DNA of 32,805 nucleotides from a virus. Of this stretch, positions 475 through 17,123 are shown piece after piece (within the stretch, counting starts at the first letter, position 1; every line of letters begins with the position of its first letter). Below the pieces are notes generated by a model. It was not told the origin of the DNA. It made no database searches and saw only the letters and a program-made list of their open reading frames with translations. The stretch covers positions 1 through 32,805 of the IMG/VR virus record IMGVR_UViG_3300015086_000001; one strand, written 5' to 3'. Both the position numbers and the translations under genes were made by a program.

Positions 475-2196
475 ATGGCTCAAATGTCCGCCGGTAACGG
501 CCCGGTCACCCCGAACCTCGCCGCTATCGTTGCCGCTGAGGCTGCGACCGCCCGCGCCGCTGAGGCCGTCGCGCAGGCCAAAGCGGACGCCGCCGCAGCC
601 AAGGCGTCGAACCTCTCCGACCTGGCCGACGCGGCCACGGCCCGGACGAACCTCGGCCTCGGCACCGCGGCGACCCACGCGACCGGCGACTACGACCCTG
701 CCGGGGCTGCCGCCGCTGAGGCTGTCACGGCACGGAACGCCAGCAACCTCTCCTCTGGCACCGTGCCCGACGCCAGGCTCCCCATCACCGCGCAGGCGGC
801 GACACTTAGTTCCACATATGGGACGGCTGGGGAGGTCCGTTCCAAGGTCAAGACGGACGGCACCGACCAGACAGCGATCCTGCAAGCCGAACTCGACACA
901 CTGACCGTATCCGGCGCGGGCGGCACGCTGATCCTGCCCACAGGGACGGTCACGATCAACGGCACGATCACTCTGACCAACGACGGGGCGACCCCACCCA
1001 AGCAGGCCACCCTCAAACTGCGGGGCGCGGGTGCGCACTGGTCCGGGCGCGGCACCGCCCCGGTCGGCGGGACCACCCTCGACATCAAGGGCATCGACAC
1101 CTACGGCAAACTCAAGACCAACGGGCTCGGCCTGCTGGCCATTAGCGGCGTCACGTTCAGGGACTCATCAGGTGGCGCCACCCCGTTCATCTACACCACG
1201 AACACCACACTGCACATTGATGAGTGCGCGTTCGTCGGCTCCAAAACTGGGGTTGCCTGCGACCAGGACGCGATCATCTGCGGTGGCACCGTCAACATCG
1301 AGGGCCAAGGCGACTTCACTCACGGATTCCAGGGCTACGGGACCGTCATCAGCCGTAACTACTTCAACGGCATCCGCCGCGCCGTGTACGGGCGGACCTA
1401 CTTCAACGCCAACGTCATCCGGGATAACACGATGTGGGCCGGCTGCGGGTTCGCCACCGGCGCAGCAATCGAAATCGACGGGACGCTCTCCACCGCCTGC
1501 GGCAACGTGATCGTCGGCAACCTCATCGAGACCCCCAACTACCAGTGGGGCATCCAACTCGCCAATGCCCAACAGAACACCCTCTCCGGTAATGGCATCT
1601 TCGACTGCGGCGCGGGCACCCTCGCAGGTGTCCGCGCAGAAGCGACGGCGCAGTACAACCGGGTCGAAGCCGGGTTCATCCAAGGCAGCAAGCCCTACCT
1701 TGCCGACGCTGCGGGCAACAACACCTTCGTCAGTCACGCCCAAGGTGTCAGATCCGTTTTCGGTCAGGGTCTGACCGTGACCAACGACATCAACCTCCTG
1801 GGCGGAACCGGTGGTGGGGTTCTGCTGAGCTCGTACAACGGCGTGCTGACAGTCGGCGGACAAATCAAGAACCTTGCAGCGGAAAACCTCTTCGGCCCTG
1901 TCACCAACTACCTCGACATCGGGTCACTTGGCACCGGGGACACGTGGGTAGACACCAGAGGCTCTAACGCAAACATCAACCTCAAACTCCGCGCACAAGG
2001 CACTGGTGCTGTCCAGCCGCAATCAGCCATGGCTATGGCCTCCGGGAAGTCCTTCAAAGCCGCGCCAACGACAACTGCCGCTCGACCATCAGCCGCAACC
2101 ATGGGTGTCGGTGCGGAGTTCTACGACACCACGCTGCTGATACCCATCTGGAGCGACGGCACCAACTGGAAGAACGCCGCTGGAACCGTCGTCTAG
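475..2196 (+). CDS. Tail fibre / tailspike with pectate-lyase-like right-handed beta-helix (putative depolymerase)
   Basis: ATG 475 is preceded by AGGAAAGG (461-468); 573 aa. The N-terminus is Ala-rich with an NLGLGTAA fibre motif. It is followed by DGTDQTAILQAELD..GGTLILPTGTVTINGTITL and repeated Gly/Asn-rich strands. Confidence 0.8.
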   Translation: MAQMSAGNGPVTPNLAAIVAAEAATARAAEAVAQAKADAAAAKASNLSDLADAATARTNLGLGTAATHATGDYDPAGAAAAEAVTARNASNLSSGTVPDARLPITAQAATLSSTYGTAGEVRSKVKTDGTDQTAILQAELDTLTVSGAGGTLILPTGTVTINGTITLTNDGATPPKQATLKLRGAGAHWSGRGTAPVGGTTLDIKGIDTYGKLKTNGLGLLAISGVTFRDSSGGATPFIYTTNTTLHIDECAFVGSKTGVACDQDAIICGGTVNIEGQGDFTHGFQGYGTVISRNYFNGIRRAVYGRTYFNANVIRDNTMWAGCGFATGAAIEIDGTLSTACGNVIVGNLIETPNYQWGIQLANAQQNTLSGNGIFDCGAGTLAGVRAEATAQYNRVEAGFIQGSKPYLADAAGNNTFVSHAQGVRSVFGQGLTVTNDINLLGGTGGGVLLSSYNGVLTVGGQIKNLAAENLFGPVTNYLDIGSLGTGDTWVDTRGSNANINLKLRAQGTGAVQPQSAMAMASGKSFKAAPTTTAARPSAATMGVGAEFYDTTLLIPIWSDGTNWKNAAGTVV

Positions 2197-3085: not shown

Positions 3086-3125
3086 CGGTCACCGCCCGGT
3101 CCAGACAACCGCCGGACGGCGACTC

Positions 3126-4618: not shown

Positions 4619-5524
4619 ATGCAAGAGACTAACCACACCCCTGCCCCAATAGGTCCCGCAGAGCAGGCCGTAATCGGCTTCCTCGCCCGATACTCGTGCG
4701 CCGGCACCGTCGACGCCTACACGATCGATCTGCGCATCCTCTTCCAGTGGTGCGCCGCTAACGGCGTCGAGCCCTTGCAGGCATCACGCACACACCTCGA
4801 GCTCTTTGCCCGCCACCTCGAGCACGACCGCGGCAACTGCCCGGTCTCGGTCCACCGGCGCCTGAGCACGATCAAGTGCTTCTACAACATCGCCTCCATC
4901 GACGGCTACGTCGGTCAGTCCCCAGCCATCCACCTACGCCTCCCTCGCGTCTTCAAGGACGAGACCAAGACCCTCGGCCTGGACCGTCTCGAGCTCGGCG
5001 CGGTCGTCTCCGCCGCCCGAGCCTCCAGCGCCTGCGACTCGGCGCTGATCACCATGCTCGGACTGCTTGGGCTGCGGGTCTCCGAAGCCTGCAACGTCCG
5101 GATCCAGGACATCCACGGCCTCGAGCGCGGCCACCGCACACTGACTCTGGTCGGCAAAGGCCGCAAGCCCGCCACGATGCCGCTCGCCGTACCTGTCGCC
5201 CGGGTCCTGGACGCCGCGGCCGGTGACCGGATCGAGGGCCCGCTCCTGCTGCGCGCCAACGGCCGGCCCATGAACCGCGACTCGGCTGCCCGGGTCGTGG
5301 TCCGCCTGGCCAAGCAGGTCGGCATCAAGAAGAAGCTTTCACCGCACTCGTTGCGGCACTCGTACATCACTGCGTGCCTGGACGCCGGGGTCCCGCTGCG
5401 CGACGTGCAGATCGCCGCCCGCCACTCCGACCCCCGTATGACGACCCGGTACGACCGCGCCCGCGGCAACCTCGACAGGCACGCCAACTACGTCGTCGCC
5501 GCCTTCATCGCCGGCGCCGCATAG
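4619..5524 (+). CDS. Tyrosine recombinase 1 (XerC/D-like integrase)
   Basis: GGAGA lies 5 nt upstream of the ATG; 301 aa. There is a SAM-like N-domain. Catalytic pattern: GLRVSE (R), GKGRK (K), HSLRH (HxxR), ARHSD (H), TTRY (Y). Confidence 0.92.
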   Translation: MQETNHTPAPIGPAEQAVIGFLARYSCAGTVDAYTIDLRILFQWCAANGVEPLQASRTHLELFARHLEHDRGNCPVSVHRRLSTIKCFYNIASIDGYVGQSPAIHLRLPRVFKDETKTLGLDRLELGAVVSAARASSACDSALITMLGLLGLRVSEACNVRIQDIHGLERGHRTLTLVGKGRKPATMPLAVPVARVLDAAAGDRIEGPLLLRANGRPMNRDSAARVVVRLAKQVGIKKKLSPHSLRHSYITACLDAGVPLRDVQIAARHSDPRMTTRYDRARGNLDRHANYVVAAFIAGAA

Positions 5525-5539
5525 CCCCCCCTCCAGCTG

Positions 5540-5573
5540 CCTGCTGATAGGTCGGACAGGCCGACCCAGCAGG
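5540..5573 (+). promoter_or_regulatory. Composite hairpin 16 nt after the int1 stop (terminator or recombination-site element)
   Basis: cctgctg/cagcagg (5540-5546 / 5567-5573) encloses ggtcgg/ccgacc (5550-5555 / 5561-5566). Confidence 0.4.
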
Positions 5574-5691
5574 ACACTGAACGCCACTCCTGAACCCAGT
5601 CAGGTGGGGGCGTTTTCATGCCCACAGAGGCGACCGATAACGAAGATTCAAGCTAAGCCGTAGCCTGCTACTCAGTCCTCTCCGGACAACG

Positions 5692-5727
5692 CGCCCCACC
5701 TGGTCCCCAACAGGTGGGGCGTTTTTA
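5692..5727 (+). terminator. Intrinsic terminator
   Basis: cgccccacctg (5692-5702) pairs with caggtggggcg (5711-5721), with an 8-nt loop, followed by TTTTTA. Confidence 0.8.
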
Positions 5728-5786
5728 TGCTCAAACCACTGACCCTGATTAACGATTCATCGAACTGAACAGCGAGGCGCGCCCCA

Positions 5787-6428
5787 ATGACCTATCCCGC
5801 GACCCAGACGTACTGGCTTCAGTCGACTAACCGATCCCGGTTCGGGCTGCGTCGCTACTCCTCCCGAGAAGGTCGCACCGGATGGACCTGCGAGAGCGGA
5901 TGGCACGAGGCAAAGGGACCTCTCGTGTGGGAGGGCACAGCGGTGCAGACCGAGCATGACTCTGGCCACCGCACATTGGCCGCCCTGCCGGATACCTCGC
6001 ATGACAGCCCGCTCTGGCCGCGATTCTGCCAAGCGGGCTGCGGCTACGAGTTCGTCGAGAGCGACAACTGGCAGGACACCCAGGACCAGCTCTACCAGCG
6101 CACCGACACCGGCCAGCGATTCACCCTGCGCGACGCTCCGCCCGGTGCCTGCTGGGACGCCTGGTGGATGCCCGACAACTGGCGCGGCGCCGACGGCATC
6201 GCGCTCATGGTCCGCTGCCCCAACGGCGACGACTGGCATGTCGACAGCGAGGCCAGCAACTGCACCCGCAAGGGCGAGACCCACCAGTGCTGGGTCCGCC
6301 ACGGCGACCCACGCCAGGCCAACGTCACCGTCGACAAGAACGGCGACACCTGCGCAGCTGGTGCAGGCTCCATCCTCGCCGGGGACTACCACGGCTTCCT
6401 CATCGGTGGCCTGCTCACTGCCGGCTGA
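5787..6428 (+). CDS. Trp/Cys-rich 213-aa hypothetical protein (moron between two recombinase genes)
   Basis: GAGG lies 9 nt upstream. GC3 is strongly G/C in this frame, unlike the overlapping ORFs 5757..6482(-) and 5956..6921(+). The C-terminus is ..CPNGDDWHVD..HQCWVRHGDP..NVTVDKNGDTCAAGAGSILAGDYHGFLIGGLL. Confidence 0.75.
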   Translation: MTYPATQTYWLQSTNRSRFGLRRYSSREGRTGWTCESGWHEAKGPLVWEGTAVQTEHDSGHRTLAALPDTSHDSPLWPRFCQAGCGYEFVESDNWQDTQDQLYQRTDTGQRFTLRDAPPGACWDAWWMPDNWRGADGIALMVRCPNGDDWHVDSEASNCTRKGETHQCWVRHGDPRQANVTVDKNGDTCAAGAGSILAGDYHGFLIGGLLTAG

Positions 6429-7836: not shown

Positions 7837-8030
7837 GGCGCTGTCTCCCGGCTGAACGCTGCGGCCACGTCATCAGCGGACGGGATGTGACTGCGGCGGG
7901 CCATGACTGCCAGCCGCTCGTAGCCGCGGCCCATCCGCCTGTGCCAACGAGCGTTGTTGATGGTCCACCCGCTGGCCACGCCGAGAGCCCAGATAGCGAC
8001 CAGGGTCAGGAACTGCACCGCCGTGCTCAT
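7833..8030 (-). CDS. 65-aa protein with N-terminal TM helix (prophage-expressed membrane protein)
   Basis: MSTAVQFLTLVAIWALGVASGWTI.. followed by a basic tail. It lies in the leftward lysogeny-side operon. Confidence 0.6.
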   Translation of the reverse strand: MSTAVQFLTLVAIWALGVASGWTINNARWHRRMGRGYERLAVMARRSHIPSADDVAAAFSRETAP

Positions 8031-8053
8031 GGCTGAGTCGTCACCGCGCGAAG

Positions 8054-8130
8054 GAAGTTCACACTTCCCCTGGATGTGTGAACTTTCAGCTCTGAACCTT
8101 GCATGTCCGTGAAGTCCAGTTCAGTGTTCA
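8054..8130. promoter_or_regulatory. Array of TGAAC/GTTCA half-sites including a perfect 10-bp inverted repeat
   Basis: AAGTTCACAC (8055-8064) and GTGTGAACTT (8076-8085) flank an 11-bp spacer. Further half-sites are CTGAAC 8091-8096, GTGAAG 8109-8114, GTTCAG 8119-8124 and GTTCAT 8126-8131. Confidence 0.5.
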
Positions 8131-8403
8131 TCTCTTCGCCCTCCGTGCCTTGAGCAACGCATCAGCGGCGGCCTGCGCAGACCCGAACGGCCTGCCGCCG
8201 TGGACCATCCGCACCTTCCCGCGGACGATCATGTCCGCGCCCCACCCGTTGTCGTACTCCACGACGTACCCCACGGTCGTGCCTACTCGGGAGACGAGCA
8301 CTGCCCCCCACTTCGTCTTACGGAGGACCTTGCGCGACTCAACCACCCAGGTCCGGCCGAAGCCGGGGTCTGCGAGAACTGGCGCGACACTCTTGGCGGT
8401 CAT
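8128..8403 (-). CDS. 91-aa basic hypothetical protein translationally coupled to recombinase 3
   Basis: ATG 8403 shares its A with the int3 stop (TGATG). The protein is MTAKSVAPVLADPGFGRTWVV...ALLKARRAKR. The longer 8128..9030 ORF is the same frame read through int3 antisense-free space. Confidence 0.6.
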   Translation of the reverse strand: MTAKSVAPVLADPGFGRTWVVESRKVLRKTKWGAVLVSRVGTTVGYVVEYDNGWGADMIVRGKVRMVHGGRPFGSAQAAADALLKARRAKR

Positions 8404-9251
8404 CACGCGGCCAGCAGATCGATCGCGGCGCGGCACTCGGCGTCGTCGACAGCCAGGTAGACCTCGGTCGACGCCAGGAACTCGTGCCTCATCAAGTTCT
8501 GAACCACCCTGATATTCGCGCCCTCGCGCAGGAGCCGCGTCGCGAAGGTATGCCGGCCGCGGTGGATCCCGCCCTCGATCCCGTTGGCTGCCAGCAGTGT
8601 GCAGGTCCGCGCTGACACATGGCGCGCGGACACGTGCCCGGCTTCTGAGGAGCTCGGGAACCACCACCCGTGGCGCGGCATGGTCGACGCCAGCGCCCAG
8701 ACCGCGGCGTGGGTCGGCACGTAGGCGCTGCGTCCGCCCTTGCCGCAGACGAACATCCGGTCTTCCTGGACGTCCTGCCCTCTGATTTTTGCGATCTCGA
8801 AGGCCCTCAAGCCGGAGAACAAAGCCAAGATCAGCCAGGCGTGCTGTCTCGCGCTGGTCGCCGACGCCAGGATCAGGTCGACCTGCTCCGAGGTCAGCGG
8901 GCGAGGGGAGCCCTTGGGCACGTGCGGGCGGTGCATCTTGGTCATCGGGTCGACCGCAACGAGCTCGGCCTCCTCTGCCGCCCAGCCGAAGTAGCTGCGC
9001 AGGTGCCCGTAGAACGTCGCGCGCGACCAAGGCGCGTACCCCGGCCGCCCGAGCCAGGCCGTGATCTCGGCCCGTGTGACGTTGGGGAAGTTGGGGTGGT
9101 GGCGCTCGAAGTCGGCCAGGTGCGCGAGGCGGTAGTGGACGGTGCTGATGGCGCAGCCGTTGGCGCGAAGCCAGTCTGCGAACCCGCTCATGTCTGTCAT
9201 GGGCGCATCGTCTACCAGCACCAGGTGGCGCGCGGGGGATTCGTGTGTCAT
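8403..9251 (-). CDS. Tyrosine recombinase 3 (integrase in the repressor operon)
   Basis: 282 aa. Catalytic pattern: GLRAFE, CGKGGR, HRGRHTF, MRHEF, TEVY. The gene starts 13 nt downstream of the repressor gene. The start could also be the internal MTDMSGF. Confidence 0.9.
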   Translation of the reverse strand: MTHESPARHLVLVDDAPMTDMSGFADWLRANGCAISTVHYRLAHLADFERHHPNFPNVTRAEITAWLGRPGYAPWSRATFYGHLRSYFGWAAEEAELVAVDPMTKMHRPHVPKGSPRPLTSEQVDLILASATSARQHAWLILALFSGLRAFEIAKIRGQDVQEDRMFVCGKGGRSAYVPTHAAVWALASTMPRHGWWFPSSSEAGHVSARHVSARTCTLLAANGIEGGIHRGRHTFATRLLREGANIRVVQNLMRHEFLASTEVYLAVDDAECRAAIDLLAA

Positions 9252-9264
9252 CCGACAGATCCGG

Positions 9265-9585
9265 TTACGCCGCGGTCTGGCGGACGAGACTGAGCCGAGA
9301 ATCGGACCGGACCACCCGCAGGCGTCGGGTTAACTCAACGGTAAACGGGCCGCCCCACATGAGCCAGTCACGGTCGTAACCGGTGCTGGCAGCGATGGCT
9401 GCGATATGCCGGGTCACACCGCGGGTACCTCGGCCCAGTTCCATGCCCTGCCACACGCCGAGTGGCACTCCGGTTGCTATAGCGGCTTCCCTTTGAGACC
9501 AACCCTCTTCATGTCGCAGGGCTATCAGCCGCATGGGTAGGGAGTCGGTGGGAATCCTAGGGCGTGGGTCCGTCTCGGGTGCCAT
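9265..9585 (-). CDS. XRE/cI-type HTH repressor
   Basis: From ATG 9585: MAPETDPRPRIPTDSLPMRLIALRHEEGWSQREAAIATGVPLGVWQGMELG.., a classic HTH_3 pattern. It faces the rightward early genes. Confidence 0.8.
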   Translation of the reverse strand: MAPETDPRPRIPTDSLPMRLIALRHEEGWSQREAAIATGVPLGVWQGMELGRGTRGVTRHIAAIAASTGYDRDWLMWGGPFTVELTRRLRVVRSDSRLSLVRQTAA

Positions 9586-9704
9586 GGCAGGATCGTGGCG
9601 CGTCCAATGGCATCTTGTCAAGCACTTTGACGCTCCGGGCGTGGTTTAGTGCCAGACACGCACGTCATCGCTATTGACGCGCGAATGTGCCAATGGCATG
9701 TTGG
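9586..9704. promoter_or_regulatory. Divergent switch region with repeated operator-like motif CCAATGGCATNTTG
   Basis: Copies lie at 9604-9617 and 9690-9703. The second is embedded in the 11-bp palindrome TGCCAATGGCA (9688-9698). There is also GTCAAgcactTTGAC at 9617-9631. Confidence 0.55.
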
Positions 9705-9988
9705 CCGTTATGCAGAAATCGACGATGCAACTGCTCATAGAGCATCGGTACGGCCCCACGCTCCAGTCCGACATAGAGGCGATGATCGAAGATGGCCTGG
9801 GCTGGCGCGCGATGGCCAAGGTGGTCTCCAAGCACGCCGACTATCCGCTCAGCTACGAAGCGCTGCGCCAGTGGTACGGCCCCCAGGCTGAGCAGGCAGC
9901 CAAAGCCATGAGGGACGCCAAGGCCAAAGCGAACACCACATTGCCCCTGGACGACGACGTCCCCGACAGCGTTGCCACTGCGGTATGA
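9698..9988 (+). CDS. First rightward early protein (Cro-position; possible DNA-binding)
   Basis: The ORF is open from TTG 9674, with ATGs at 9698, 9710 and 9725 and no clear SD (possibly leaderless). It contains ..DGLGWRAMAKVVSKHADYPLSYEALRQWY.. Confidence 0.5.
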   Translation: MLAVMQKSTMQLLIEHRYGPTLQSDIEAMIEDGLGWRAMAKVVSKHADYPLSYEALRQWYGPQAEQAAKAMRDAKAKANTTLPLDDDVPDSVATAV

Positions 9989-10161
9989 GCACCGCGACGG
10001 CGATGACCGTGATCGTGCCGTCATGCGCTGAGTGCGCCTCAGACATGCACCACAAATGCTTCGGCAAGACCTGGGTCGACGATCTCTACCGGCTCATGCC
10101 TTGCCCCTGCGCCAAAGCCGGCCACCAGCGCCAGCTGAGCGCGCCCCAAGAGCCGAACTAA
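9985..10161 (+). CDS. 58-aa Cys-rich protein
   Basis: ATGA overlap with the upstream gene. The protein is MSTATAMTVIVPSCAECASDMHHKCFGKTWVDDLYRLMPCPCAKAGH.. It is below the ORF-track cut-off and is followed by a hairpin. Confidence 0.5.
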   Translation: MSTATAMTVIVPSCAECASDMHHKCFGKTWVDDLYRLMPCPCAKAGHQRQLSAPQEPN

Positions 10162-10165
10162 TTGC

Positions 10166-10200
10166 GGGGCACCAGGTGGCTGGAGTTCATCTGGTGCCCC
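10166..10200 (+). terminator. Hairpin after the first early transcription unit
   Basis: ggggcaccag (10166-10175) pairs with ctggtgcccc (10191-10200), with a 15-nt loop and no clear U-tract. Confidence 0.4.
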
Positions 10201-10534
10201 TGAATGTGACAGGCGAAAGAAAGGTTTTCCGGGGGGCCAGGGAAAAGCCCCGAGCTAAGGCTCTGAGGGCTTAGACAACCCCCGGATTACCTGCTCTCCT
10301 CCGGGGGGGGGTGTGCGGATACGCACGTCTGGCACGGCCCGACGAGTGCACGGCCGCAGGGCGAAGGCCCGCAGCTAAACCGCCACGGGCCTTCTCACCA
10401 ATTACTAGGGCTTTGCGGCCCTGTAATACCCACAGTACCGGGCTGAACCGGGTTTACGTCACCTTAGCGGGGACAGACGTATACCTTATTGCGGGTATTT
10501 TTCGGGGTCGCGAGGCCGGAAAGACATGGGCACC
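10201..10534 (+). other. Structured non-coding region (candidate ncRNA and/or replication origin)
   Basis: There is no convincing ORF and GC is lower than elsewhere. Elements: a G9 run at 10303-10311, mutually exclusive pairings around CCCCCGGA (10279-10286), a 10-bp-stem hairpin at 10401-10427, direct repeats of GCACGGCC, and a T-tract hairpin at 10481-10502. Confidence 0.55.
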
Positions 10535-10753
10535 ATGTCACCCCAAACCTCTTGCCCAACTGGAACGTACAACTCACCTCTGACAAGCCACGACCGCGTT
10601 GCAGACGCTGTCGAGACACTCCGCATATTGTCGGATCAGCGAGTCGCCGGTCAAGAGAAAACCCTTGATCTGCACGGTGTTATCGCCCACATCCACGGCC
10701 TCGGCTACCACCTGGTCCTGGCTCGTGATCTTCCCCGCGGCAGCCGGCCGTGA
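10535..10753 (+). CDS. Possible 72-aa protein coupled to the downstream 423-aa gene
   Basis: Its stop overlaps GTG 10750 (GTGA). GGAAAG lies 11 nt upstream of ATG 10535. GC3 is clearly lower than in neighbouring genes, so coding status is uncertain. Confidence 0.35.
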   Translation: MSPQTSCPTGTYNSPLTSHDRVADAVETLRILSDQRVAGQEKTLDLHGVIAHIHGLGYHLVLARDLPRGSRP

Positions 10754-12021
10754 GCGTCGCGCAGCTGGTCGACCAGGCCCCGCCGGTCGACGTCCTGCCG
10801 GCCAGGACGGGCTTCAAGGGCGCCAAGGTGCCATGGGTGCACGTGCACGACGACGGCATACGCCCGGGGCTGTCCACGAAGGTGCCTGATGGTGCCTACC
10901 GGGGCACTGTGCGCTGGTCGAAGCCTGAGGCCTTCCTGAAGGGGCTGCGTGTAGCCCTGGAGGCCCATCCGGAGCTGCGACGAACGAACCTAGACCGGCG
11001 GACCGGCAAGTACAAGGACGTCCAGGGGCTCGAGCGGTTCATGCGCATCGCCGAGGCCGTGACCCTCGCGGCCGACCATCGCACCGGCCGCGACGTGCGC
11101 GCCCGCAGGAAGGAGATCGCCGAGGCTGCCGGCTGCTCGGTCCAGGACGTTCAGCGGTGGAACCGCATCGCCTCCCGAGTCCTACAGATCCTGGTCCCGA
11201 TCGCCGACGGCCGACAGCTGACCCTCCTCGAACGCCTGGACGTCTGGGCACGCCAGACAAGCCCCCGACTAAAGCAGCACGGCGTCTCCACGGTCTGGGC
11301 GTTCCACGTTCCGCCCTGGCTGCGCCAGATCATGGCCGCTGCAGCGATCCAGGCCCCACGGATGGACGCCCGGGGCCGCTGGCACACCACCTCTGACCTG
11401 CAGCTGAAGGAGTCCGCACCCCATCCACGTAGTGGTCACGCTTTTGAGACAGATCACCTTGCGTACAACTCCCCTTCGCACCCGACAAGCGGCTCGCTTC
11501 GCTCACCAAGCGGCCCGGGCTCCGCCCGGACAGCCCTGATGAAGAAGGGGCGACCCCCGCCGGGCCGGCAGCTCGCGATCAGATTCGTCAAAGCCATGCC
11601 ACTGCTACGTTCAACGTCCCCCAAGCGGCTTGAGAACCGCCTAAAACGGTTCGTCGAGTCCCGACCCGTCTGGACAGCACAGGACCTTCTCGACGCGATT
11701 CAGACCAGCTGCGAACGAAGCGGCCGGAGCGCAACCCCACCCGCCGACCAGATCCACACGCCATGGGCGTTCGTCGGGTCACTCCTGGACAGCATCCACG
11801 AGCACGACGACCACCCACGCCTGCCGTTCGTCGACCCCGCCGAGCTCCGCTGCGGCCGACCTGAGTGCGACTACGGCTGGATCACCCTCGACGACGTCGC
11901 CGGCCGGCCTCTGGTCCGCCGCTGCGACAGGTGCCGCCCCGGCGCATGGCCCGAGCACGAGTCGAGCGCTGATGACCTCCTCGACGGGGCACCGGCCGAC
12001 GACTCAGAGCCGCCGTTCTGA
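10750..12021 (+). CDS. 423-aa DNA-binding protein with central HTH and C-terminal Cys4 zinc ribbon (putative replication initiator)
   Basis: HTH-like RRKEIAEAAGCSVQDVQRWNRIA. The C-terminus is CGRPECDYGWITLDDVAGRPLVRRCDRCRPG. It is the only candidate replication protein in the genome. The function is inferred. Confidence 0.6.
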   Translation: MSVAQLVDQAPPVDVLPARTGFKGAKVPWVHVHDDGIRPGLSTKVPDGAYRGTVRWSKPEAFLKGLRVALEAHPELRRTNLDRRTGKYKDVQGLERFMRIAEAVTLAADHRTGRDVRARRKEIAEAAGCSVQDVQRWNRIASRVLQILVPIADGRQLTLLERLDVWARQTSPRLKQHGVSTVWAFHVPPWLRQIMAAAAIQAPRMDARGRWHTTSDLQLKESAPHPRSGHAFETDHLAYNSPSHPTSGSLRSPSGPGSARTALMKKGRPPPGRQLAIRFVKAMPLLRSTSPKRLENRLKRFVESRPVWTAQDLLDAIQTSCERSGRSATPPADQIHTPWAFVGSLLDSIHEHDDHPRLPFVDPAELRCGRPECDYGWITLDDVAGRPLVRRCDRCRPGAWPEHESSADDLLDGAPADDSEPPF

Positions 12022-12037
12022 TGGCTACCGCCGATGC

Positions 12038-12334
12038 TCACGCGGATGGTCGCTTTCCTTGCGGCACGCAGACAACCGTCACGACCTCTTTGGTGTCGAG
12101 CATGACGACGACCCTGACACCACCTGCCTCGCGGATCTCAACGTTCCATCGCCCACCACCTCGTTTCGTCACCGGCGCGCAGACGACTCGCAGAGCAACG
12201 ATGGGATTGACATGCCGCTGGCTCATCCGCCTCAGAGCGTGTTCAGTGAAAGTCCACTCGGCTGCTTCCGCTGGAAGCCCCTTGGCCACGATCGTGAGAC
12301 CCGATATGTGGATCGTGATCTCATCGTCACTCAT
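12038..12334 (-). CDS. DUF4258-like toxin-domain protein, antisense to the early operon
   Basis: 98 aa from ATG 12334. WTFTEHALRRMSQRHVNPIVALRVV...VRVVVMLDTKEVVTVV fits the F-[ST]-x-HA-x-x-RM-x-x-R pattern of DUF4258. It exactly fills the only + strand coding gap (12022-12397). Confidence 0.6.
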   Translation of the reverse strand: MSDDEITIHISGLTIVAKGLPAEAAEWTFTEHALRRMSQRHVNPIVALRVVCAPVTKRGGGRWNVEIREAGGVRVVVMLDTKEVVTVVCVPQGKRPSA

Positions 12335-12397
12335 CGGACTCGTTCCATCGCGGCATCTAACCGCAGAACGCCAATCACCCCTAGCCCGCGCGCCGTC

Positions 12398-12610
12398 ATG
12401 CTGACTCCCGGTTCCACACGTCTGGCACCAGCTGGCCACCAGGTCGCCGACGTGCACTCGATCGAGGCAGCCAAGCTGCACCGGCTCGACCTCGCCGACG
12501 CGCGCATCGTCCAGTGCTCCTGGTGCGACGCCCGGAGCTTCACCGACCCCTGCGCGTTCTGCGCAGGCCGCTTCCCAGAAGCCGGATTCGAGGATGGAGC
12601 AACGTCATGA
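12398..12610 (+). CDS. 70-aa zinc-ribbon protein
   Basis: ATG 12398. The protein contains ..IVQCSWCDARSFTDPCAFCAGRF.. (CxxC-x8-CxxC). It starts the chain of overlapping early genes. Confidence 0.6.
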   Translation: MLTPGSTRLAPAGHQVADVHSIEAAKLHRLDLADARIVQCSWCDARSFTDPCAFCAGRFPEAGFEDGATS

Positions 12611-12846
12611 GCCCAAGCAGTAACGCACCGCAGAGCGCGTTCAAGCGGCCTCGCCGGGTGAAGCCGGCATACGACATCCAGGTCGGCGACGTCGTGCGCA
12701 TCGGCAACAGCTCGTTGCGCTGGGTCGTCGAGGAGTTCGGCGACCTCACGCCCGGCGTGCCCTACGCCGACCTGCGACCAGTGGCTGGGCCTGGCGTAGC
12801 CAGAGCCACGCTCGACCGGCTCAGCGTCGTCAGCAAGGGAAGATGA
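12607..12846 (+). CDS. 79-aa hypothetical protein
   Basis: ATGA overlap with the upstream gene and good GC3. The protein is MSPSSNAPQSAFKRPRRVKPAYDIQVGDVVRIGN.. Confidence 0.65.
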   Translation: MSPSSNAPQSAFKRPRRVKPAYDIQVGDVVRIGNSSLRWVVEEFGDLTPGVPYADLRPVAGPGVARATLDRLSVVSKGR

Positions 12847-12849
12847 GCT

Positions 12850-13485
12850 GTGACCACTGACCGTGAAGCAATATTCACCGACACACGGTCTCGACGGATC
12901 CCCAGCTGGCTGTCCCATCTGCGGACCGACCGGCGAGGTCTACCAGTGCCGTACGTGAACCTCTGGGGAGAGGAGGACCTGACGAGGGTGCGGATTGCGT
13001 ACGACCGGCATACCGACTCGGAGGCGTTGTTCCTGGACGACGATGACCAGGAGATCCCCGACTTCACGCGGCAGAACATGGGCAGGCAGCGGGAGTGCAT
13101 GGTCGACGGGCTCTGTCAGGTCTGCCACCGCCAGGTGCCGTGGTCACGCCGGTTCGTGGTCGTGTCGGGGATGAGTGTCCAGCCGATCAACGTCCCGAAG
13201 TTCGGCGACGTGGTCGTGATCCACGAGCCGTGGCTCTGCCAGCGGTGCGCCCAGTTCGCAATCGAGGTATGCCCGGCGCTGATCCGCCGTTCCCGCGAGG
13301 ACGAGCTGAAGCTGATCCAGGTCAGCTCGCAGATGGACGTGTCGATAGTTGTCTCTCGAGGTTGGATCGAGGGGCCTCTGGAGGAGGAGACGAAACGGGT
13401 GCAGCCTGCGATGTGGTGCAAGATCCTGCTGACGAGAACGCGATTGGAAATCGGCCGTGGCGTTGAGAGCGCGATGAGCCGATGA
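12850..13485 (+). CDS. 211-aa Cys-rich hypothetical early protein
   Basis: GTG 12850. Cysteine motifs are CQVCHRQ and EPWLCQRCAQFAIEVCPAL. It carries the start-proximal motif at 12857-12868. Confidence 0.8.
   Translation: MTTDREAIFTDTRSRRIPSWLSHLRTDRRGLPVPYVNLWGEEDLTRVRIAYDRHTDSEALFLDDDDQEIPDFTRQNMGRQRECMVDGLCQVCHRQVPWSRRFVVVSGMSVQPINVPKFGDVVVIHEPWLCQRCAQFAIEVCPALIRRSREDELKLIQVSSQMDVSIVVSRGWIEGPLEEETKRVQPAMWCKILLTRTRLEIGRGVESAMSR
12857..12868 (+). promoter_or_regulatory. Start-proximal element copy 1 (CTGACCGTGAAG)
   Basis: It begins 7 nt after the first base of GTG 12850 and encodes T-D-R-E with the CGT and GAA codons. Confidence 0.5.
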
Positions 13486-13826
13486 GCCCGGATGCTGACC
13501 GTGAAGAGATAGTCATTGCCGCCCCGCGCATGTCGATTGCCGAGTTCCGCAGGCTCGGCTACGTGCAAGAGATCAACCGCCTACTGCTTCACCCATGCGG
13601 ACTGGCACTTGAGGTGTCTGTCGCAGAGGATGGCACCGAAACGCTCGGTGGGATCTGGGACTATCGCGAGGACCCCGAGGGCATCTATTACAGCGGCAAC
13701 CTGACTGACGATCTCTCAGCCAAGGCGCTCAGAGTCGCAGCCGAACGGGCTAGGCGCGCAGATGCTCGCATCGAGATGCTCGGCTACATCGTGCAACCCG
13801 TGGACGGCATGAGGAGGCAACGATGA
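13482..13826 (+). CDS. 114-aa hypothetical early protein
   Basis: ATGA overlap. The protein is MSPDADREEIVIAAPRMSIAEFRRLGYVQEINRLLLHPCGLAL.. Confidence 0.8.
   Translation: MSPDADREEIVIAAPRMSIAEFRRLGYVQEINRLLLHPCGLALEVSVAEDGTETLGGIWDYREDPEGIYYSGNLTDDLSAKALRVAAERARRADARIEMLGYIVQPVDGMRRQR
13494..13506 (+). promoter_or_regulatory. Start-proximal element copy 2 (GCTGACCGTGAAG)
   Basis: The CTGACC core begins 13 nt after the first base of ATG 13482. The 13 nt are identical to copy 3. Confidence 0.5.
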
Positions 13827-13981
13827 GTATCGACAGAGTGGAGCCCAGCGCCGACATGCGTCAGAACGCCCACCAGCTCCGGGAGATGTTCATCGCACTG
13901 GTGGAGGAAGGCTTCACCGAAGCGCAAGCCGTCGGCATCATCGGGAAGATCCTCAGCGCCGGGATGGGCAGTTCGTCATGA
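13823..13981 (+). CDS. 52-aa hypothetical protein
   Basis: ATGA overlaps at both ends. The protein is MSIDRVEPSADMRQNAHQLREMFIALVEEGFTEAQAVGIIGKIL.. It is below the ORF-track cut-off. Confidence 0.55.
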   Translation: MSIDRVEPSADMRQNAHQLREMFIALVEEGFTEAQAVGIIGKILSAGMGSSS

Positions 13982-14382
13982 CCGACTCTGCTGACCGTGA
14001 AGGTGTAGTCACGCGCACCCCTATCGCAGCGGTCTGCGTCCATGAGGATGGGTTTGAGCACCCCTCGAGTGGCAGGCTGCCCTGTTCGTGGACGCTCTCC
14101 AGGCTCGACGCTATCCGCGAGCGTGACGAGGCGCGGGCCGAACTGGCTGACGCCAAAGACGCCTACGTTGCGGCACAGGAGGAGGAGGAGCGGCTGACCG
14201 CCGCGTGTGTCCAGTCCGAGGCTGTGATCCGTCGAGTCGAAGAAACCGTGAACACCTTGATGAGACTCAGTGGCGCTGCGCAGCGAGATCATGTGATCGG
14301 ACACCCCAACACGGCGGCCTACTCCGATGCCTACGAGAACGCGATCCGTCTGGTCCGTGCCGCTCTTGAGGAACGTCCATGA
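13978..14382 (+). CDS. 134-aa hypothetical early protein (coiled-coil segment)
   Basis: ATGA overlap. The protein is MTDSADREGVVTR... with ERDEARAELADAKDAYVAAQEEEERL. Confidence 0.8.
   Translation: MTDSADREGVVTRTPIAAVCVHEDGFEHPSSGRLPCSWTLSRLDAIRERDEARAELADAKDAYVAAQEEEERLTAACVQSEAVIRRVEETVNTLMRLSGAAQRDHVIGHPNTAAYSDAYENAIRLVRAALEERP
13990..14002 (+). promoter_or_regulatory. Start-proximal element copy 3 (GCTGACCGTGAAG)
   Basis: The CTGACC core begins 13 nt after the first base of ATG 13978. Confidence 0.5.
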
Positions 14383-14549
14383 GCGACCAGCCTGCTGACC
14401 GTGATGGGATGTTCTACATCCGAGTCCTCGAGGATGGCAGCACAGTCGCGATCTGCAGACGGTGCGGCGCAAAGGTCGTCGACATCCTCGACGCTGCTCA
14501 CGTCTGCGACCCGGCCAGCGCCGAAGACCCTCCATGGCAGGACTACTGA
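14379..14549 (+). CDS. 56-aa CxxC protein
   Basis: ATGA overlap. The protein is MSDQPADRDGMFYIRVLEDGSTVAICRRCGAKVVDILDAAHVCDP.. It is below the ORF-track cut-off. Confidence 0.55.
   Translation: MSDQPADRDGMFYIRVLEDGSTVAICRRCGAKVVDILDAAHVCDPASAEDPPWQDY
14394..14406 (+). promoter_or_regulatory. Start-proximal element copy 4 (GCTGACCGTGATG)
   Basis: The CTGACC core begins 16 nt after the first base of ATG 14379. It matches copies 2 and 3 at 12 of 13 positions. Confidence 0.45.
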
Positions 14550-14878
14550 TGACCCCCGACGCTGACGCGGACCCCACCACATTCCGGGAGTATGTGGAGG
14601 CATACCGGACCGCGGTCAACAGTGAGGCCCAGCATGAGGCCGACACCCTGAAGGACGAGGCGATGCAGCAGGTGAGCGTTGGGGAGCAGGTCGCCGAGCT
14701 CAGTAGATCGCTGCGTCAGAAGGATGCCACCATCGACCGTGTCAGAGCGCTCACCGACGAATGGCACGTGGTTACTGACCGCGATCGCACACACGCACCC
14801 GGCATATGTCACAAATGGCATCCCGACTGCCTGGTGCTCGCTATCCGCGACGTGCTCGAGGAGCCACCTCGTGGGTGA
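14549..14878 (+). CDS. 109-aa hypothetical early protein
   Basis: TGATG overlap. The protein is MTPDADADPTTFREYVEAYRTAV.. A degenerate motif copy, GCTGACGCGGACC, lies at 14561-14573. Confidence 0.7.
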   Translation: MTPDADADPTTFREYVEAYRTAVNSEAQHEADTLKDEAMQQVSVGEQVAELSRSLRQKDATIDRVRALTDEWHVVTDRDRTHAPGICHKWHPDCLVLAIRDVLEEPPRG

Positions 14879-15380
14879 CTTCGACGCCGCCCAGGTCCTC
14901 GCTGAGGTCATCCACTACGCCCTCAACCCCAAAGGCAATGACTTCCAGCGGGAGGCGCGCGCCGTCATCGCGGCCATCAAGGCCGACACGCCGCAGGGCG
15001 CCGAGCTCCGGAGAGCCATCTTTGGATTCGGGCCGGCGCCTGCGCTGTGGGACCGCCTGGACAAGACGGCACCCACATCGGCACAGATGATCGAGTGGTA
15101 CGCGCCGCACACCGCCGAGCTGATCCACTCCGAGCACTTGGCCGCCCACGCTCGCGACATGGCAGGGACGGCCACAGGCACGGAAGAGGCCGCTCTGTGG
15201 ACGCAGATCGCCGCCGAGATCGACGGCTGGCTCGACGAACCCAACACTGCTGACCAGCTGCGTGAGGACAGGGTCACCAGCACCGAGCGTGACGCGGCCT
15301 GGTACGAGGCTCGCCGTGGGCGCGCAGACGACGTGCGCCCGTCCCGGCTAGAAGCGGAACGCGACGCGGACGACTCATAA
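14871..15380 (+). CDS. 169-aa hypothetical early protein
   Basis: GTG 14871 overlaps the upstream gene by 8 nt; the ORF is open from 14679, so the start is uncertain. Acidic C-terminus. Confidence 0.7.
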   Translation: MGDFDAAQVLAEVIHYALNPKGNDFQREARAVIAAIKADTPQGAELRRAIFGFGPAPALWDRLDKTAPTSAQMIEWYAPHTAELIHSEHLAAHARDMAGTATGTEEAALWTQIAAEIDGWLDEPNTADQLREDRVTSTERDAAWYEARRGRADDVRPSRLEAERDADDS

Positions 15381-15382
15381 TC

Positions 15383-15538
15383 ATGGTTATGCACATCGTC
15401 GTCCTGGCACTGCTCATCGTGGCCGCGCTCCTATTCCTGCTCGCAGCCATCGGCGTCTCATCACGCCTGAACCTCGTCGCATTCGGCCTGCTCGCCTGGG
15501 TGAGCACGCTGCTGGTCACAGAGCTGGGCGGCAAGTAG
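15383..15538 (+). CDS. 51-aa two-TM membrane peptide
   Basis: MVMHIVVLALLIVAALLFLLAAIGVSSRLNLVAFGLLAWVSTLLVTELGGK. It is below the ORF-track cut-off. Confidence 0.55.
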   Translation: MVMHIVVLALLIVAALLFLLAAIGVSSRLNLVAFGLLAWVSTLLVTELGGK

Positions 15539-15544
15539 AGACAC

Positions 15545-16330
15545 ATGATGAGCGTCGAAAAGCTCGCCATCTCCCCCTGCGTGCACCCGCGCTGCCAAGA
15601 CGCAGACGGGAACCGGCGCCTCACCACCCAGAACATGTGCGACCCCTGCCAGATCCGGTTCCGCCGCGAGCTGGGCTGGATCGTCATGGACTACGTCACG
15701 CTCAAGACGTTCCTGCCCTCACCAATGCGCCAAGGCGGCCAGACCCGTCACAACAAGAAGCAGTCGTTCGGCCACCCAGCCCAGGACGCCAGCGACGCGT
15801 GCAGCGAGATCGCCTGGATGCTCAACAACATCGAGGCCGGCCTGCGCGCCCACCTTGGAGACCTACCCGCGCCCGACCTGGTGGCCACCTACGGAAGGTA
15901 CGCCATCGGCTACCGAGTGGGCGCGCTCCTGGTGAACCACGCCCACCTCTATCTCGCCGGCCACTTCGAGCAGCTCTGCGACTGGCCCGATGTCGGCTAC
16001 CACGCGGATGCGGTGCACGACACACACCAGACCAACCGCAGCAGGTACGGCCTCACCCGTCCCATCGAGCCACGACTGCCGATGCCATGTCCCAGCTGCG
16101 ACATCGCCATGCTCGTCAGGGACGTCGGGAAGACCCAACAGCAGACCGCCTACACCTGTGAGAACTGTGGTCGGAAGATCCGTGAGGACGAGTACCTGAC
16201 GATCGCACGCATGACCATCGCCTGGCGCGTCCACGTCTACGAGGCCGAACTCCGCGCCGACGTCCTGGATCAGCTCTGCGACCTGTTCCGTGCTCTGGAG
16301 GCATCAAGGTCGGGCTCTGCGACGGCCTGA
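15545..16330 (+). CDS. 261-aa protein with two Cys4 zinc-ribbon motifs (candidate regulator)
   Basis: The N-terminus has CVHPRC..CDPC and the C-terminal part has CPSCD..CENCGRKIREDEY. Good GC3. The function is unknown. Confidence 0.8.
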   Translation: MMSVEKLAISPCVHPRCQDADGNRRLTTQNMCDPCQIRFRRELGWIVMDYVTLKTFLPSPMRQGGQTRHNKKQSFGHPAQDASDACSEIAWMLNNIEAGLRAHLGDLPAPDLVATYGRYAIGYRVGALLVNHAHLYLAGHFEQLCDWPDVGYHADAVHDTHQTNRSRYGLTRPIEPRLPMPCPSCDIAMLVRDVGKTQQQTAYTCENCGRKIREDEYLTIARMTIAWRVHVYEAELRADVLDQLCDLFRALEASRSGSATA

Positions 16331-16736: not shown

Positions 16737-17123
16737 ATGCCACGAGGCTCAGGTCGGTCACTGCGACCAGGCGGGCCTGACTTCACAGTCCACTTCACAA
16801 CCCTCATCGCGTCGATTGGATCCCCCCACGTGACGACTCGAGACGCCGCCGAGAAAGCAGTCCTGGTCTACAAGGAGACTCAGCCGGCCATCGACGCGCT
16901 CAAGTCCACCACGGCTAGGAACACGGCAGCGAAGAAGACCCTCGGCGCCTACATGACCGAGAAGAACATCGCCACCTTCCGCGGCGTCACCCTGACCTGC
17001 GTGCCCTACGACGGCTGGGACTACGACAAGCTCCGCGCCTACCTTGGCGACAAGGTGAAGACCTTCCAGCGCTCCCTGGACCGCAAGCACTTCGCGATCG
17101 TGAAGCGTCGTGCCCCCAAGTAG
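16737..17123 (+). CDS. Hypothetical protein (start uncertain; GTG 16830 gives 97 aa)
   Basis: Coding quality is good from about 16830 (VTTRDAAEKAVLVYKETQPAIDALK..). The upstream part contains the tandem ACTTCACA repeat and may be non-coding. Confidence 0.6.
   Translation: MPRGSGRSLRPGGPDFTVHFTTLIASIGSPHVTTRDAAEKAVLVYKETQPAIDALKSTTARNTAAKKTLGAYMTEKNIATFRGVTLTCVPYDGWDYDKLRAYLGDKVKTFQRSLDRKHFAIVKRRAPK

Follow-up and report, generated by a model that had tools for sequence, protein, structure and literature searches.

The stretch analysed here, referred to as the window, is an entire metagenomic contig of 32,805 bases and 66% G+C (IMG/VR record IMGVR_UViG_3300015086_000001) from a temperate siphovirus-like phage. 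Just inside the 5′ ends of small, coupled genes in its early region lies a short repeated element, here called the module. The element is real: its conservation is at the level of the nucleic acid, it is portable from one gene family to another and keeps a fixed order, and homology breakpoints between related phages and one chimeric junction map to it. Tentatively, the modules are read as "sockets", conserved in-frame junctions in a hypervariable array of early-gene cassettes that would give each gene a start context and the array its crossover points. Crossover at the sockets may be their selected function, the start context that they supply may matter, and a dedicated reader of the sequence may exist.

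The module is intact in four genes of the array, decayed in one and absent from one (13823-13981). The copies were scored with a 24-nt position weight matrix (PWM) built from the copies themselves, and five module types, defined by their tails, were named by the encoded peptide.

12850..14878 (+): early-gene cassette array of six tightly coupled small genes with ATGA overlaps
12850..12896 (+): 'EAIF' module; GTG start at 12850, core ACTGACCGTGAAG at 12856-12868, tail caatattcacc to 12879; PWM 34.5 bits
13482..13517 (+): 'EEIV' module; ATGA start overlapping the upstream stop, core GCTGACCGTGAAG at 13494-13506, tail agatagtcatt; PWM 35.5 bits
13978..14013 (+): 'EGVV' module; ATGA start, core at 13990-14002, tail gtgtagtcacg; PWM 32.6 bits
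14379..14417 (+): 'DGMF' module; ATGA start, core GCTGACCGTGATG at 14394-14406, tail ggatgttctac; PWM 30.9 bits
14549..14584 (+): decayed module; GCTGACGCGGACC at 14561-14573 at the start of a 109-aa gene, where GCTGAC alone survives

The exact 10-mer CTGACCGTGA occurs five times in the window, where 0.12 occurrences are expected and none of 100 dinucleotide shuffles reached five. The initial annotation had placed it at 12857, 13495, 13991 and 14395, and all four positions are exact; its distances to the starts at 12850 (GTG), 13482, 13978 and 14379, namely 7, 13, 13 and 16 nt, are also right, the 13-mers that it quoted are as stated, and all four array copies share one frame (xCT GAC CGT GAx). 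Its description of four consecutive genes has to be amended, in that four genes do carry copies but are four of five, a 52-aa gene (13823-13981) without a copy lying between copies 2 and 3. The degenerate copy that it reported for the gene at 14549 is present at 14561, and the orthologue of this gene in the related contig L012 (53% aa identity over 73 residues) has an intact 'DEIV' module at 7917. The codons of the element are indeed rare, with GCT accounting for 10.7% of Ala, CGT for 10.2% of Arg, GAA for 18.9% of Glu, ATA for 2.7% of Ile and GTA for 3.8% of Val in the long genes of the window. In the PWM scan against shuffled controls that had been proposed as a check, the array copies scored 30.9–35.5 bits and the best shuffled hit 16.4 bits.

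Related contigs were collected through homologues of a 261-aa zinc-ribbon protein encoded downstream of the array (L010, L011, L012 and L009), through a 70-aa protein (L008), through homologues of the 211-aa protein encoded at 12850 (L123, L121 and L122) and through scans with the motif (L004, L006, which is the same contig as L008, L093, L109, L117 and L119). PWM scores of at least 18 bits occurred at 30 places in 11 related contigs, compared to 7–16 bits for the best hit per shuffled window (n = 30; the shuffles keep base composition only), and the consensus consists of a core, GCTGACCGTGAWG, and a semi-conserved tail, nnnTRnTCAC. Almost all copies (29/30) begin 3–21 nt after the start codon (ATG or GTG, in frame) of successive small early genes, and all are on the sense strand, in one shared reading frame and within the early array, with up to six copies per relative and four intact copies in the window. 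Copies are either well kept (mostly >22 bits) or lost (<13 bits), and because they share descent, their counts are not counts of independent events. The loci collected independently of the motif (L010, L011, L012, L123 and L008) all carry the module, the copy numbers among them being 3, 1, 4, 6 and 1, and the proteins common to the window and the 10 other module contigs are only 45–77% identical. No modules were found in L121 and L122, which are more distantly related and have the 211-aa protein in common (60–64% identity), so the element is specific to one clade, a small group of uncultured actinobacterial phages. Matches to the motif pattern in low-GC viral contigs (MAVADRDGVFYAFDT*, internal GEVSDAMLGGADRDAVFE) fell in unrelated genes or 15-codon open reading frames (ORFs) and were discarded, along with metagenome matches with the N-terminus MRYLPKSPADREAML, an unrelated conserved protein start that is presumably that of a GcvP-type glycine-cleavage protein.

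That the constraint acts on the nucleic acid rather than on the peptide, which the initial annotation had argued from codon usage in the window, is strongly supported by the relatives. In the first 19 aligned copies, positions 3–11 do not vary apart from a single C-to-A substitution at position 7, A (12 copies) and T (7 copies) are the only bases at position 12, position 18 is a purine, G13, T17 and C21 are invariant, and T20 is kept in 18/19; the variable positions of the module are 14–16 and 19, and conservation in these copies shows no three-base periodicity. The third base of the first codon is T in 29/30 copies while the residue encoded there is A, T, G, P, D or S, a pattern that is the reverse of protein selection. 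The same peptide in freely varying codons, named at the outset as the observation that would count against the proposal, was not seen, with no synonymous variant among the 30 copies, and a codon-blind search for the peptide DR(E/D)x followed by two hydrophobic residues returned no N-terminal copy in other codons. Codons that are otherwise disfavoured are kept in the modules (ATA in 11/11 cases), and outside the 13-mer used for collecting, the preceding Pro is CCT in 13/13 and the fifth codon is xTA (ATA, GTA, CTA or TTA) in 17/18 non-Met cases. Comparison of seven orthologous pairs defined by their cargo, the coding sequence behind the module, bore out the proposed check at synonymous sites, as third positions were identical at 49/56 sites in the module and at 233/494 (47%) in the cargo (Fisher p = 4e-9); overall nucleotide identity was 88% in the 24-nt module and 60% in the rest of the genes. 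The 'DGMF' module, for instance, is identical to that of L093 at 25/25 nt, with 40–61% aa identity in the cargo among orthologues. The genes have 85% G+C at third codon positions (GC3), and the third positions of the cargo are saturated.

At least 17 unrelated protein families in the 11 contigs carry the module. With the module removed, BLASTP comparison of 26 module genes gave four small families and 14 singletons, the families being a C5 DNA methylase, two of unassigned function and a small zinc-finger-like family (family D) that includes the 56-aa protein headed by the 'DGMF' module at 14379. The 'EEIV' module of the window is identical at 23/23 nt to L010 5212-5234, where it heads an unrelated 147-aa gene. 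The family of the 211-aa protein has at least 120 members, nearly all of which start at M-x-(I/V)-P-x-W-L-x-H-L-R, and about 117 of 120 have no module add-on; the add-on is found in the window, where the 'EAIF' module adds 16 N-terminal codons ending at 12896, in L123 and probably in L004, where the contig end cuts the copy after 18 codons, and it belongs to two module types. The L010 orthologue shares 81% nucleotide identity from 12897 on and starts MKIPNWL, without the 16-codon add-on. A module without cargo makes up an 11-codon mini-ORF of L012, MSDDRDWVLTP*, which is joined to the genes on either side by ATGA overlaps, and the same module heads a 216-aa gene in L123 and a 20-codon remnant in L004.

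Some observations on these genes stand apart. The source annotation of 12850-13485 gives a protein of 179 aa from 12946, which is 32 codons late and loses both the module and the motif IPxWLxHLRTDRRGLPVPY; the GTG at 12850 is the sole start consistent with homologues of the 211-aa gene, and gene callers can thus misplace starts at module genes. Rare-codon N-termini common to unrelated small ORFs are a practical signature by which arrays of accessory, possibly anti-defence, genes can be found. In several relatives the array is adjoined by a conserved gene (L012 6845-7207, L123 1236-1304 and L122 4622-4987) encoding a protein with the N-terminus MSPIS(K/R/T)ENRARYPKDW; in L012 this gene lies directly behind the module without cargo; it looks HNH-like by eye, with no Pfam match for the L012 copy. 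In L001 (IMG/VR 3300049491_000822; 71% G+C), a 58%-identical homologue of the 211-aa protein adjoins a 794-aa ORF with, by eye, an FtsK/Tra-like P-loop, and from this neighbourhood the family is probably not restricted to phages.

Module types follow a fixed order, DWVL < EAIx < (E/D)EIV < (D/E)G(L/V/Q)x < (E/D)GMF, without violation in 8/8 contigs with at least two typed copies, and the cargo genes behind the ordered modules differ among the window, L008, L010 and L012. The 'EEIV' module heads six genes, with no BLASTP similarity among the five compared, and the genes behind 'EAIx' encode the 211-aa protein, a methylase or an 86-aa protein. The array turns over quickly: across 570 nt beside it, L012 and L093r are 99.3% identical, yet their arrays differ. 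BLASTN comparison of array against array yielded mostly matches confined to modules (20–45 nt, 80–100% identity) with unrelated flanks, including matches of 36–41 nt to the 'EGVV' module region in L008, L010, L011 and L109. Where homology is longer, it begins or ends near a core: it stops at +22 of the core between L008 6226-6363 and L012 7802-7939, starts at −1 of the core between L008 5615-5845 and L012 7221-7445, and starts at +32 of one module and stops at +25 of the next between L008 6530-6744 and L119 225-442, while L123 and L004r diverge at +27. A junction in L109 is a chimera with the upstream flank of the L008 'EAII' module and the tail of the next module, '(D/E)EIV', the switch falling inside the shared core, and its make-up is that of the product expected from crossover between adjacent cores. 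Among the roles that the initial annotation had listed, the module-shuffling junction is the one directly supported by the breakpoints at module edges, the chimeric junction and the conserved order with swapped cargo.

Two further conserved junction sequences, both unrelated to the module, were found in the window:

15372..15396 (+): second junction sequence, GACTCATAATCATGGTTAT, at the stop/start boundary of a 51-aa membrane-protein gene
8102..8125 (−): third conserved junction at the 5′ end of a coding sequence, GAACTGGACTTCACGGAC, encoding ELDFTD as codons 3-9 of a 34-aa ORF (8140->8039; MNTELDFTDMQ...)

The junction at 15372 is also present in L012 (9433-9457) and L093 (about 3092-3116), heads a 9-codon mini-ORF in L012 and L093r, and forms the exact left end of the 99.3%-identical 570-nt block shared by L012 and L093r, upstream of which the DNA is unrelated; this alignment marks it as a recombination breakpoint at a short conserved boundary sequence. 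The junction at 8102 is identical at 18/18 nt in L004 (6645-6662), L008 (1102-1119) and L012 (1237-1254), lies in the leftward integrase operon and has unrelated proteins behind it. It bears some likeness to the core read in reverse complement, and a copy in reverse orientation would have spoken for a DNA site, but as such a copy it was rejected, with PWM scores of 8.8–14.3 bits that are within the shuffled range.

A module extends over about 24–40 nt, roughly codons 2–10, in which an invariant core, (G)CTGACCGTGAWG, is followed by an 11-nt tail that is specific to the position in the array. Under the socket reading, the socket would supply any ORF fused to it with a ready-made start context, composed of a strong Shine-Dalgarno (SD) sequence, an ATGA overlapping the upstream stop and the module itself. 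Since sockets are identical between phages and cores are identical between neighbours, they would act as crossover points for the in-register gain, loss and exchange of cassettes, with the shared core allowing loss and gain within an array and the socket-specific tails favouring in-register exchange between phages. Nucleotide identity would then be kept because homology and mRNA context matter, and not the peptide. The invariance of the 11-nt core across socket types further suggests a sequence-specific reader, for which a regulator, a nuclease or a recombinase would be candidates; a nuclease or recombinase acting at the core is possible within this model.

Several points weigh against the socket reading. 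Selection for recombination is usually weak and of second order and hardly explains an invariant 11-nt core beside distinct tails, a combination closer to that of a recognition site. Different sockets share just 13–16 nt of contiguous identity, which is under the usual minimum for efficient homologous recombination, and annotation of the phage proteins identified no recombinase. Any mosaic phage should show breakpoints close to its gene starts, so their coincidence with modules is partly trivial, and an unstructured start context would tolerate many sequences and not one. As to the sample, 5 of the 11 module-bearing contigs were collected through the motif itself, all sequences are metagenomic contigs with no host identified, and gene starts were deduced from ORFs and third-position G+C.

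A more ambitious version, possible but rather doubtful, is a plug-and-play array in which ordered, nucleotide-invariant, in-frame sockets give incoming ORFs a working start, the shared core permits deletion or duplication of cassettes, the tails hold exchange between phages in register, and a dedicated factor may recognise the core. If true, such an array would be a natural equivalent of standardised expression cassettes, and also the first systematic, testable instance of the linker sequences of Susskind and Botstein. The modules bear on two questions: whether phage genomes become mosaic through homologous exchange at short conserved boundaries or through illegitimate recombination, and what role start-associated repeats play in actinophages. 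The boundaries of this clade are explicit, repeated, ordered and under measurable synonymous-site selection, and with a chimeric junction and near-identical phages with different arrays in hand, both questions are directly testable.

Conserved boundary, or linker, sequences were reportedly part of the modular theory of phage evolution as put forward by Susskind and Botstein in 1978, and lambdoid examples are said to have been described by Clark et al. in 2001. Such sequences are discussed in PMC3029335, according to which they are not identifiable at most mycobacteriophage mosaic junctions. The modules fit the definition of conserved boundary sequences. They resemble linkers in being short sequences kept at gene boundaries between non-homologous flanks, with coinciding breakpoints and a cassette-precise chimera, but differ in being systematic, paralogous (with one shared core), intragenic, in frame and selected at synonymous sites. 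A second comparison is offered by the promoter-early stem-loop (PeSL) elements, which Arbiol et al. are said to have described in 2010 as mobile regulatory cassettes in the hyperplastic regions of T4-type phages. In both cases a repeated motif heads each small ORF of a hypervariable early region, and the repeats would drive ORF shuffling; PeSLs, however, are intergenic and consist of an early promoter and a stem-loop, whereas the module is coding and translationally coupled. Neither PeSL feature was recognised in the conserved block, where no promoter-like −35/−10 arrangement was apparent by eye (no promoter scan was run) and no consistent stem-loop was found. The modules are like PeSL cassettes in logic and unlike them in anatomy.

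A doubtful but serious rival holds that the module works primarily at the mRNA level, as a translational operator tied to gene starts through which a clade-specific protein or RNA co-regulates initiation or re-initiation, recombination being a by-product. The strict link of 29/30 copies to a start codon and the sense strand is in line with such an operator, as are the position-specific conservation (an invariant core with variable positions fixed at 14–16 and 19), the tendency of copies to be either kept above 22 bits or lost below 13 bits, as functional sites would be, the restriction to one clade (absence from L121 and L122) and the mini-ORFs that keep the module translated and coupled. The conserved block, however, begins after the start codon, with 0–6 variable codons between, and includes neither the AUG nor the SD, which lies separately upstream without sequence conservation; the core usually occupies +13 to +25 or lies further downstream, where the footprint of an initiating ribosome ends or has already ended. 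No conserved RNA fold was found at the module, with inconsistent structures and z-scores from −2.0 to +0.7 across eight copies, and no RNA-binding protein was recognised by annotation or by comparison of AF2 models. An antisense partner was sought in E. coli 16S rRNA and in a conserved 170-nt non-coding region of the early region (about 10358-10530), which complements the core no better than shuffles in either orientation, and none was found. The operator also leaves the two other, unrelated conserved junction sequences unexplained. The conserved region at about 10358-10530, part of a non-coding stretch at 10162-10749 upstream of a 423-aa gene, is shared with L004, L008, L010 and L012; its predicted consensus structure has 47 pairs, 11 of them compensatory, without an Rfam match, and it could be a non-coding RNA or an origin-like region.

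Analogues for an mRNA operator are the T4 RegA targets and the role proposed for the start-associated sequences of cluster K. A RegA-type site overlaps the SD/AUG of several early mRNAs and is bound by a phage-encoded RNA-binding repressor; the module is carried by several early mRNAs but is downstream of the AUG and excludes the SD. In working, the system closest to the module is that of the start-associated sequences (SAS/ESAS) of cluster K mycobacteriophages and the SAS-like repeats of Microbacterium phage clusters EC, EF, EG and EI (PMC3203893, PMC7302621). SAS occupy short intergenic gaps, 3–7 bp before the start codon, and include the SD core AGGAG (PMC3203893, PMC7302621), and their function was still unverified in 2025 (PMC12699233). 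Both are asymmetric 13-nt repeats that occur in one orientation, are tied to starts in the non-structural half of the genome, are attached to unrelated gene families, are conserved across the sub-groups of a cluster and are cluster-specific. The module differs in lying 3–21 nt downstream of the start, in being translated in a fixed frame without an SD, in its ordered, position-specific sub-types and in marking recombination breakpoints, and its consensus, GCTGACCGTGAWG, is unrelated to the SAS consensus, GGGATAGGAGCCC.

The start context of the module genes bears on a translational role as well. The initial annotation had considered a re-initiation or downstream-box-like element for coupled genes lacking an SD. 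The premise of a missing SD is wrong, and pairing of the downstream-box kind is not supported: SD pairing is stronger in module genes than in other early genes (mean −9.2 compared to −5.7 kcal/mol; Mann-Whitney p = 2e-5), which refutes compensation for a weak SD as the role of the module, and the best duplexes with 16S rRNA are weaker than for most shuffled modules, as judged with the E. coli 16S rRNA, which may not be that of the host. An ATGA overlap is present in 22/29 module genes and 24/57 other early genes. The downstream box of T7 gene 10 lies a few codons inside the ORF, as the module does, and synthetic bicistronic designs were reportedly introduced by Mutalik et al. in 2013. The ATGA mini-ORF resembles a natural bicistronic coupler, and the fused module resembles a standard N-terminal leader acting as an insulator between start region and cargo. 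These likenesses are limited by the lack of complementarity to 16S rRNA (E. coli) and by the consideration that an insulator would not need one exact sequence.

It is unlikely that the modules are instead an array of double-stranded DNA operators at which a clade-conserved protein (e.g., a MerR-like 80-aa or the zinc-ribbon protein) shuts off or roadblocks the array. Such a site would account for the asymmetric 13 bp, which are stoperator-like in length and copy style, and for two features typical of DNA sites, the A/T degeneracy at position 12 and an internal inverted repeat, (C)GTGA-N8-TCAC(G), contained as CGTGA-N8-TCACG in the 'EGVV' module at 13978. Multi-copy operators also have precedent in actinophage early regions; the conserved inverted repeats of phiC31 are an analogue for an operator array, and so are the stoperators of L5-type (cluster A) mycobacteriophages, at which the phage repressor blocks elongating RNA polymerase. 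Stoperators were reportedly described by Brown et al. in 1997, and they are mentioned in PMC3203893 and PMC3029335. Both they and the module are asymmetric, 13 bp long, present in many copies and oriented one way with respect to transcription, and both occur in temperate actinophages. Three stoperator features are absent here, namely 20–30 copies over both arms, mostly intergenic, an operator at the early promoter and co-variation with the repressor; the four intact module copies all lie inside ORFs and are clustered within 1.6 kb rather than spread genome-wide. A DNA operator, moreover, needs neither a position within 21 nt of a start nor one frame nor one orientation, and the reverse orientation, with three open frames, is never used.

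The immunity repressor encoded at 9265-9585, proposed initially as a roadblocking reader, is disfavoured. Neither it nor its cro-like neighbour has a homologue in L008, L010, L012 or L004, which carry identical modules, and no copy with three or fewer mismatches was found in the early promoter region (9560-9700). The repressor is therefore rejected as the reader, and the L5-type model is removed in its defining form. The early-region proteins that are conserved along with the modules are three and are thus candidate readers:

15545-16330 (+): zinc-ribbon protein (261 aa), directly downstream of the array; no match in L008
16453-16695 (+): MerR-like helix-turn-helix (HTH) protein (80 aa; phrog_2474), downstream of the array
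16737-17123 (+): 128-aa protein, downstream of the array

The MerR-like HTH and 128-aa proteins have matches in every module contig that reaches that far, and the zinc-ribbon protein in all except L008, which is consistent with a DNA operator, though the link is one of co-occurrence in a sample collected partly through the neighbouring zinc-ribbon gene. AF2 models of the zinc-ribbon (pLDDT 76) and 128-aa (pLDDT 77) proteins had no significant match in the PDB. In place of the zinc-ribbon gene, L008 has a gene at 7965-8753 with no match to the zinc-ribbon protein of the window and a C-terminus 42% identical over 36 residues to the MerR-like HTH protein; it may be a fusion of the zinc-ribbon and HTH functions.

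It is very improbable that the module is selected as an N-terminal tag, (A/T/G)-D-R-(E/D)-x-hydrophobic-hydrophobic-T, serving as a docking motif or degron, with codon identity due to descent. The constant frame and the conservative substitutions (E/D; I/V/L/M; F/V/I/L) are what a tag would predict, but the absence of synonymous variants among the 30 copies, in genes that have 85% GC3 and whose cargo is saturated at third positions, together with the varying residue and nearly fixed third base of the first codon, speaks for the nucleotides. The stand-alone mini-ORFs of 11–20 codons have nothing to tag, and orthologues function without the module; given the mini-ORF, remnant and module-less orthologue forms, a tag offers no explanation. 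Chance, or a recent tandem duplication of one gene start without function, is already refuted by the five copies observed for 0.12 expected, by the same modules in 10 other contigs whose shared proteins are just 45–77% identical and by the unrelated flanks, even though short repeats can arise by duplication and one of the five 10-mers, at 1771, does look like chance.

Beyond the four intact copies, the window contains no other significant PWM hit save a borderline one at 5738, and three sites outside the array were considered:

1771..1780 (+): fifth exact 10-mer, mid-gene in a 677-aa tail gene, in another frame and without the flanking consensus
10002..10025 (+): possible copy in another frame, GATGACCGTGATCGTGCCGTCATG, encoding M-T-V-I-V-P-S in a 58-aa gene
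5738..5761 (+): probable fossil copy, ACTGACCCTGATTAACGATTCATC, in the spacer 3′ of an intrinsic-terminator-like hairpin and upstream of the gene at 5788

The 10-mer at 1771 is not among the top PWM hits and is best read as chance. For the 58-aa gene at 9985, the sequence noted initially, ATGACCGTGATC, is present at 10003, but it stands in a different frame; the site has TGACCGTGAT plus GTCA in register, yet scores 12.3 bits, which is within the shuffled range, so it was not counted as a member.

The array belongs to a genome with the following layout:

left part of the window: tail and lysis genes
8403-9251 (−): tyrosine integrase, in a leftward operon
9265-9585/9621 (−): leftward HTH repressor (immunity repressor)
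9674 to about 18200 (+): rightward early region
right of the early region: HNH endonuclease, terminase, portal, capsid and tail genes

Database comparison placed no cultured phage close to it. Megablast of 12000-16000 against 50,697 phage records gave no match, tblastn with the zinc-ribbon and capsid proteins matched Mycobacterium and Gordonia phages at no more than 37% identity, a scan of one genome collection anchored on the 70-aa protein gave just a weak unrelated match and no host, and searches of Rfam at the gathering score and for tRNAs gave no match.

The borderline site at 5738 scores 17.1 bits, barely over the shuffled maximum of 16.4, and is probably a fossil module copy; the homologous site in L004r at 2494 has a perfect GCTGACCGTGAT and scores 20.7 bits. 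At 5524-5790, two terminator-like hairpins 3′ of the tail genes are followed by the decayed copy within a 13-codon mini-ORF, MLKPLTLINDSSN*, and L004 has the same arrangement of hairpins and mini-ORF with the copy better preserved.

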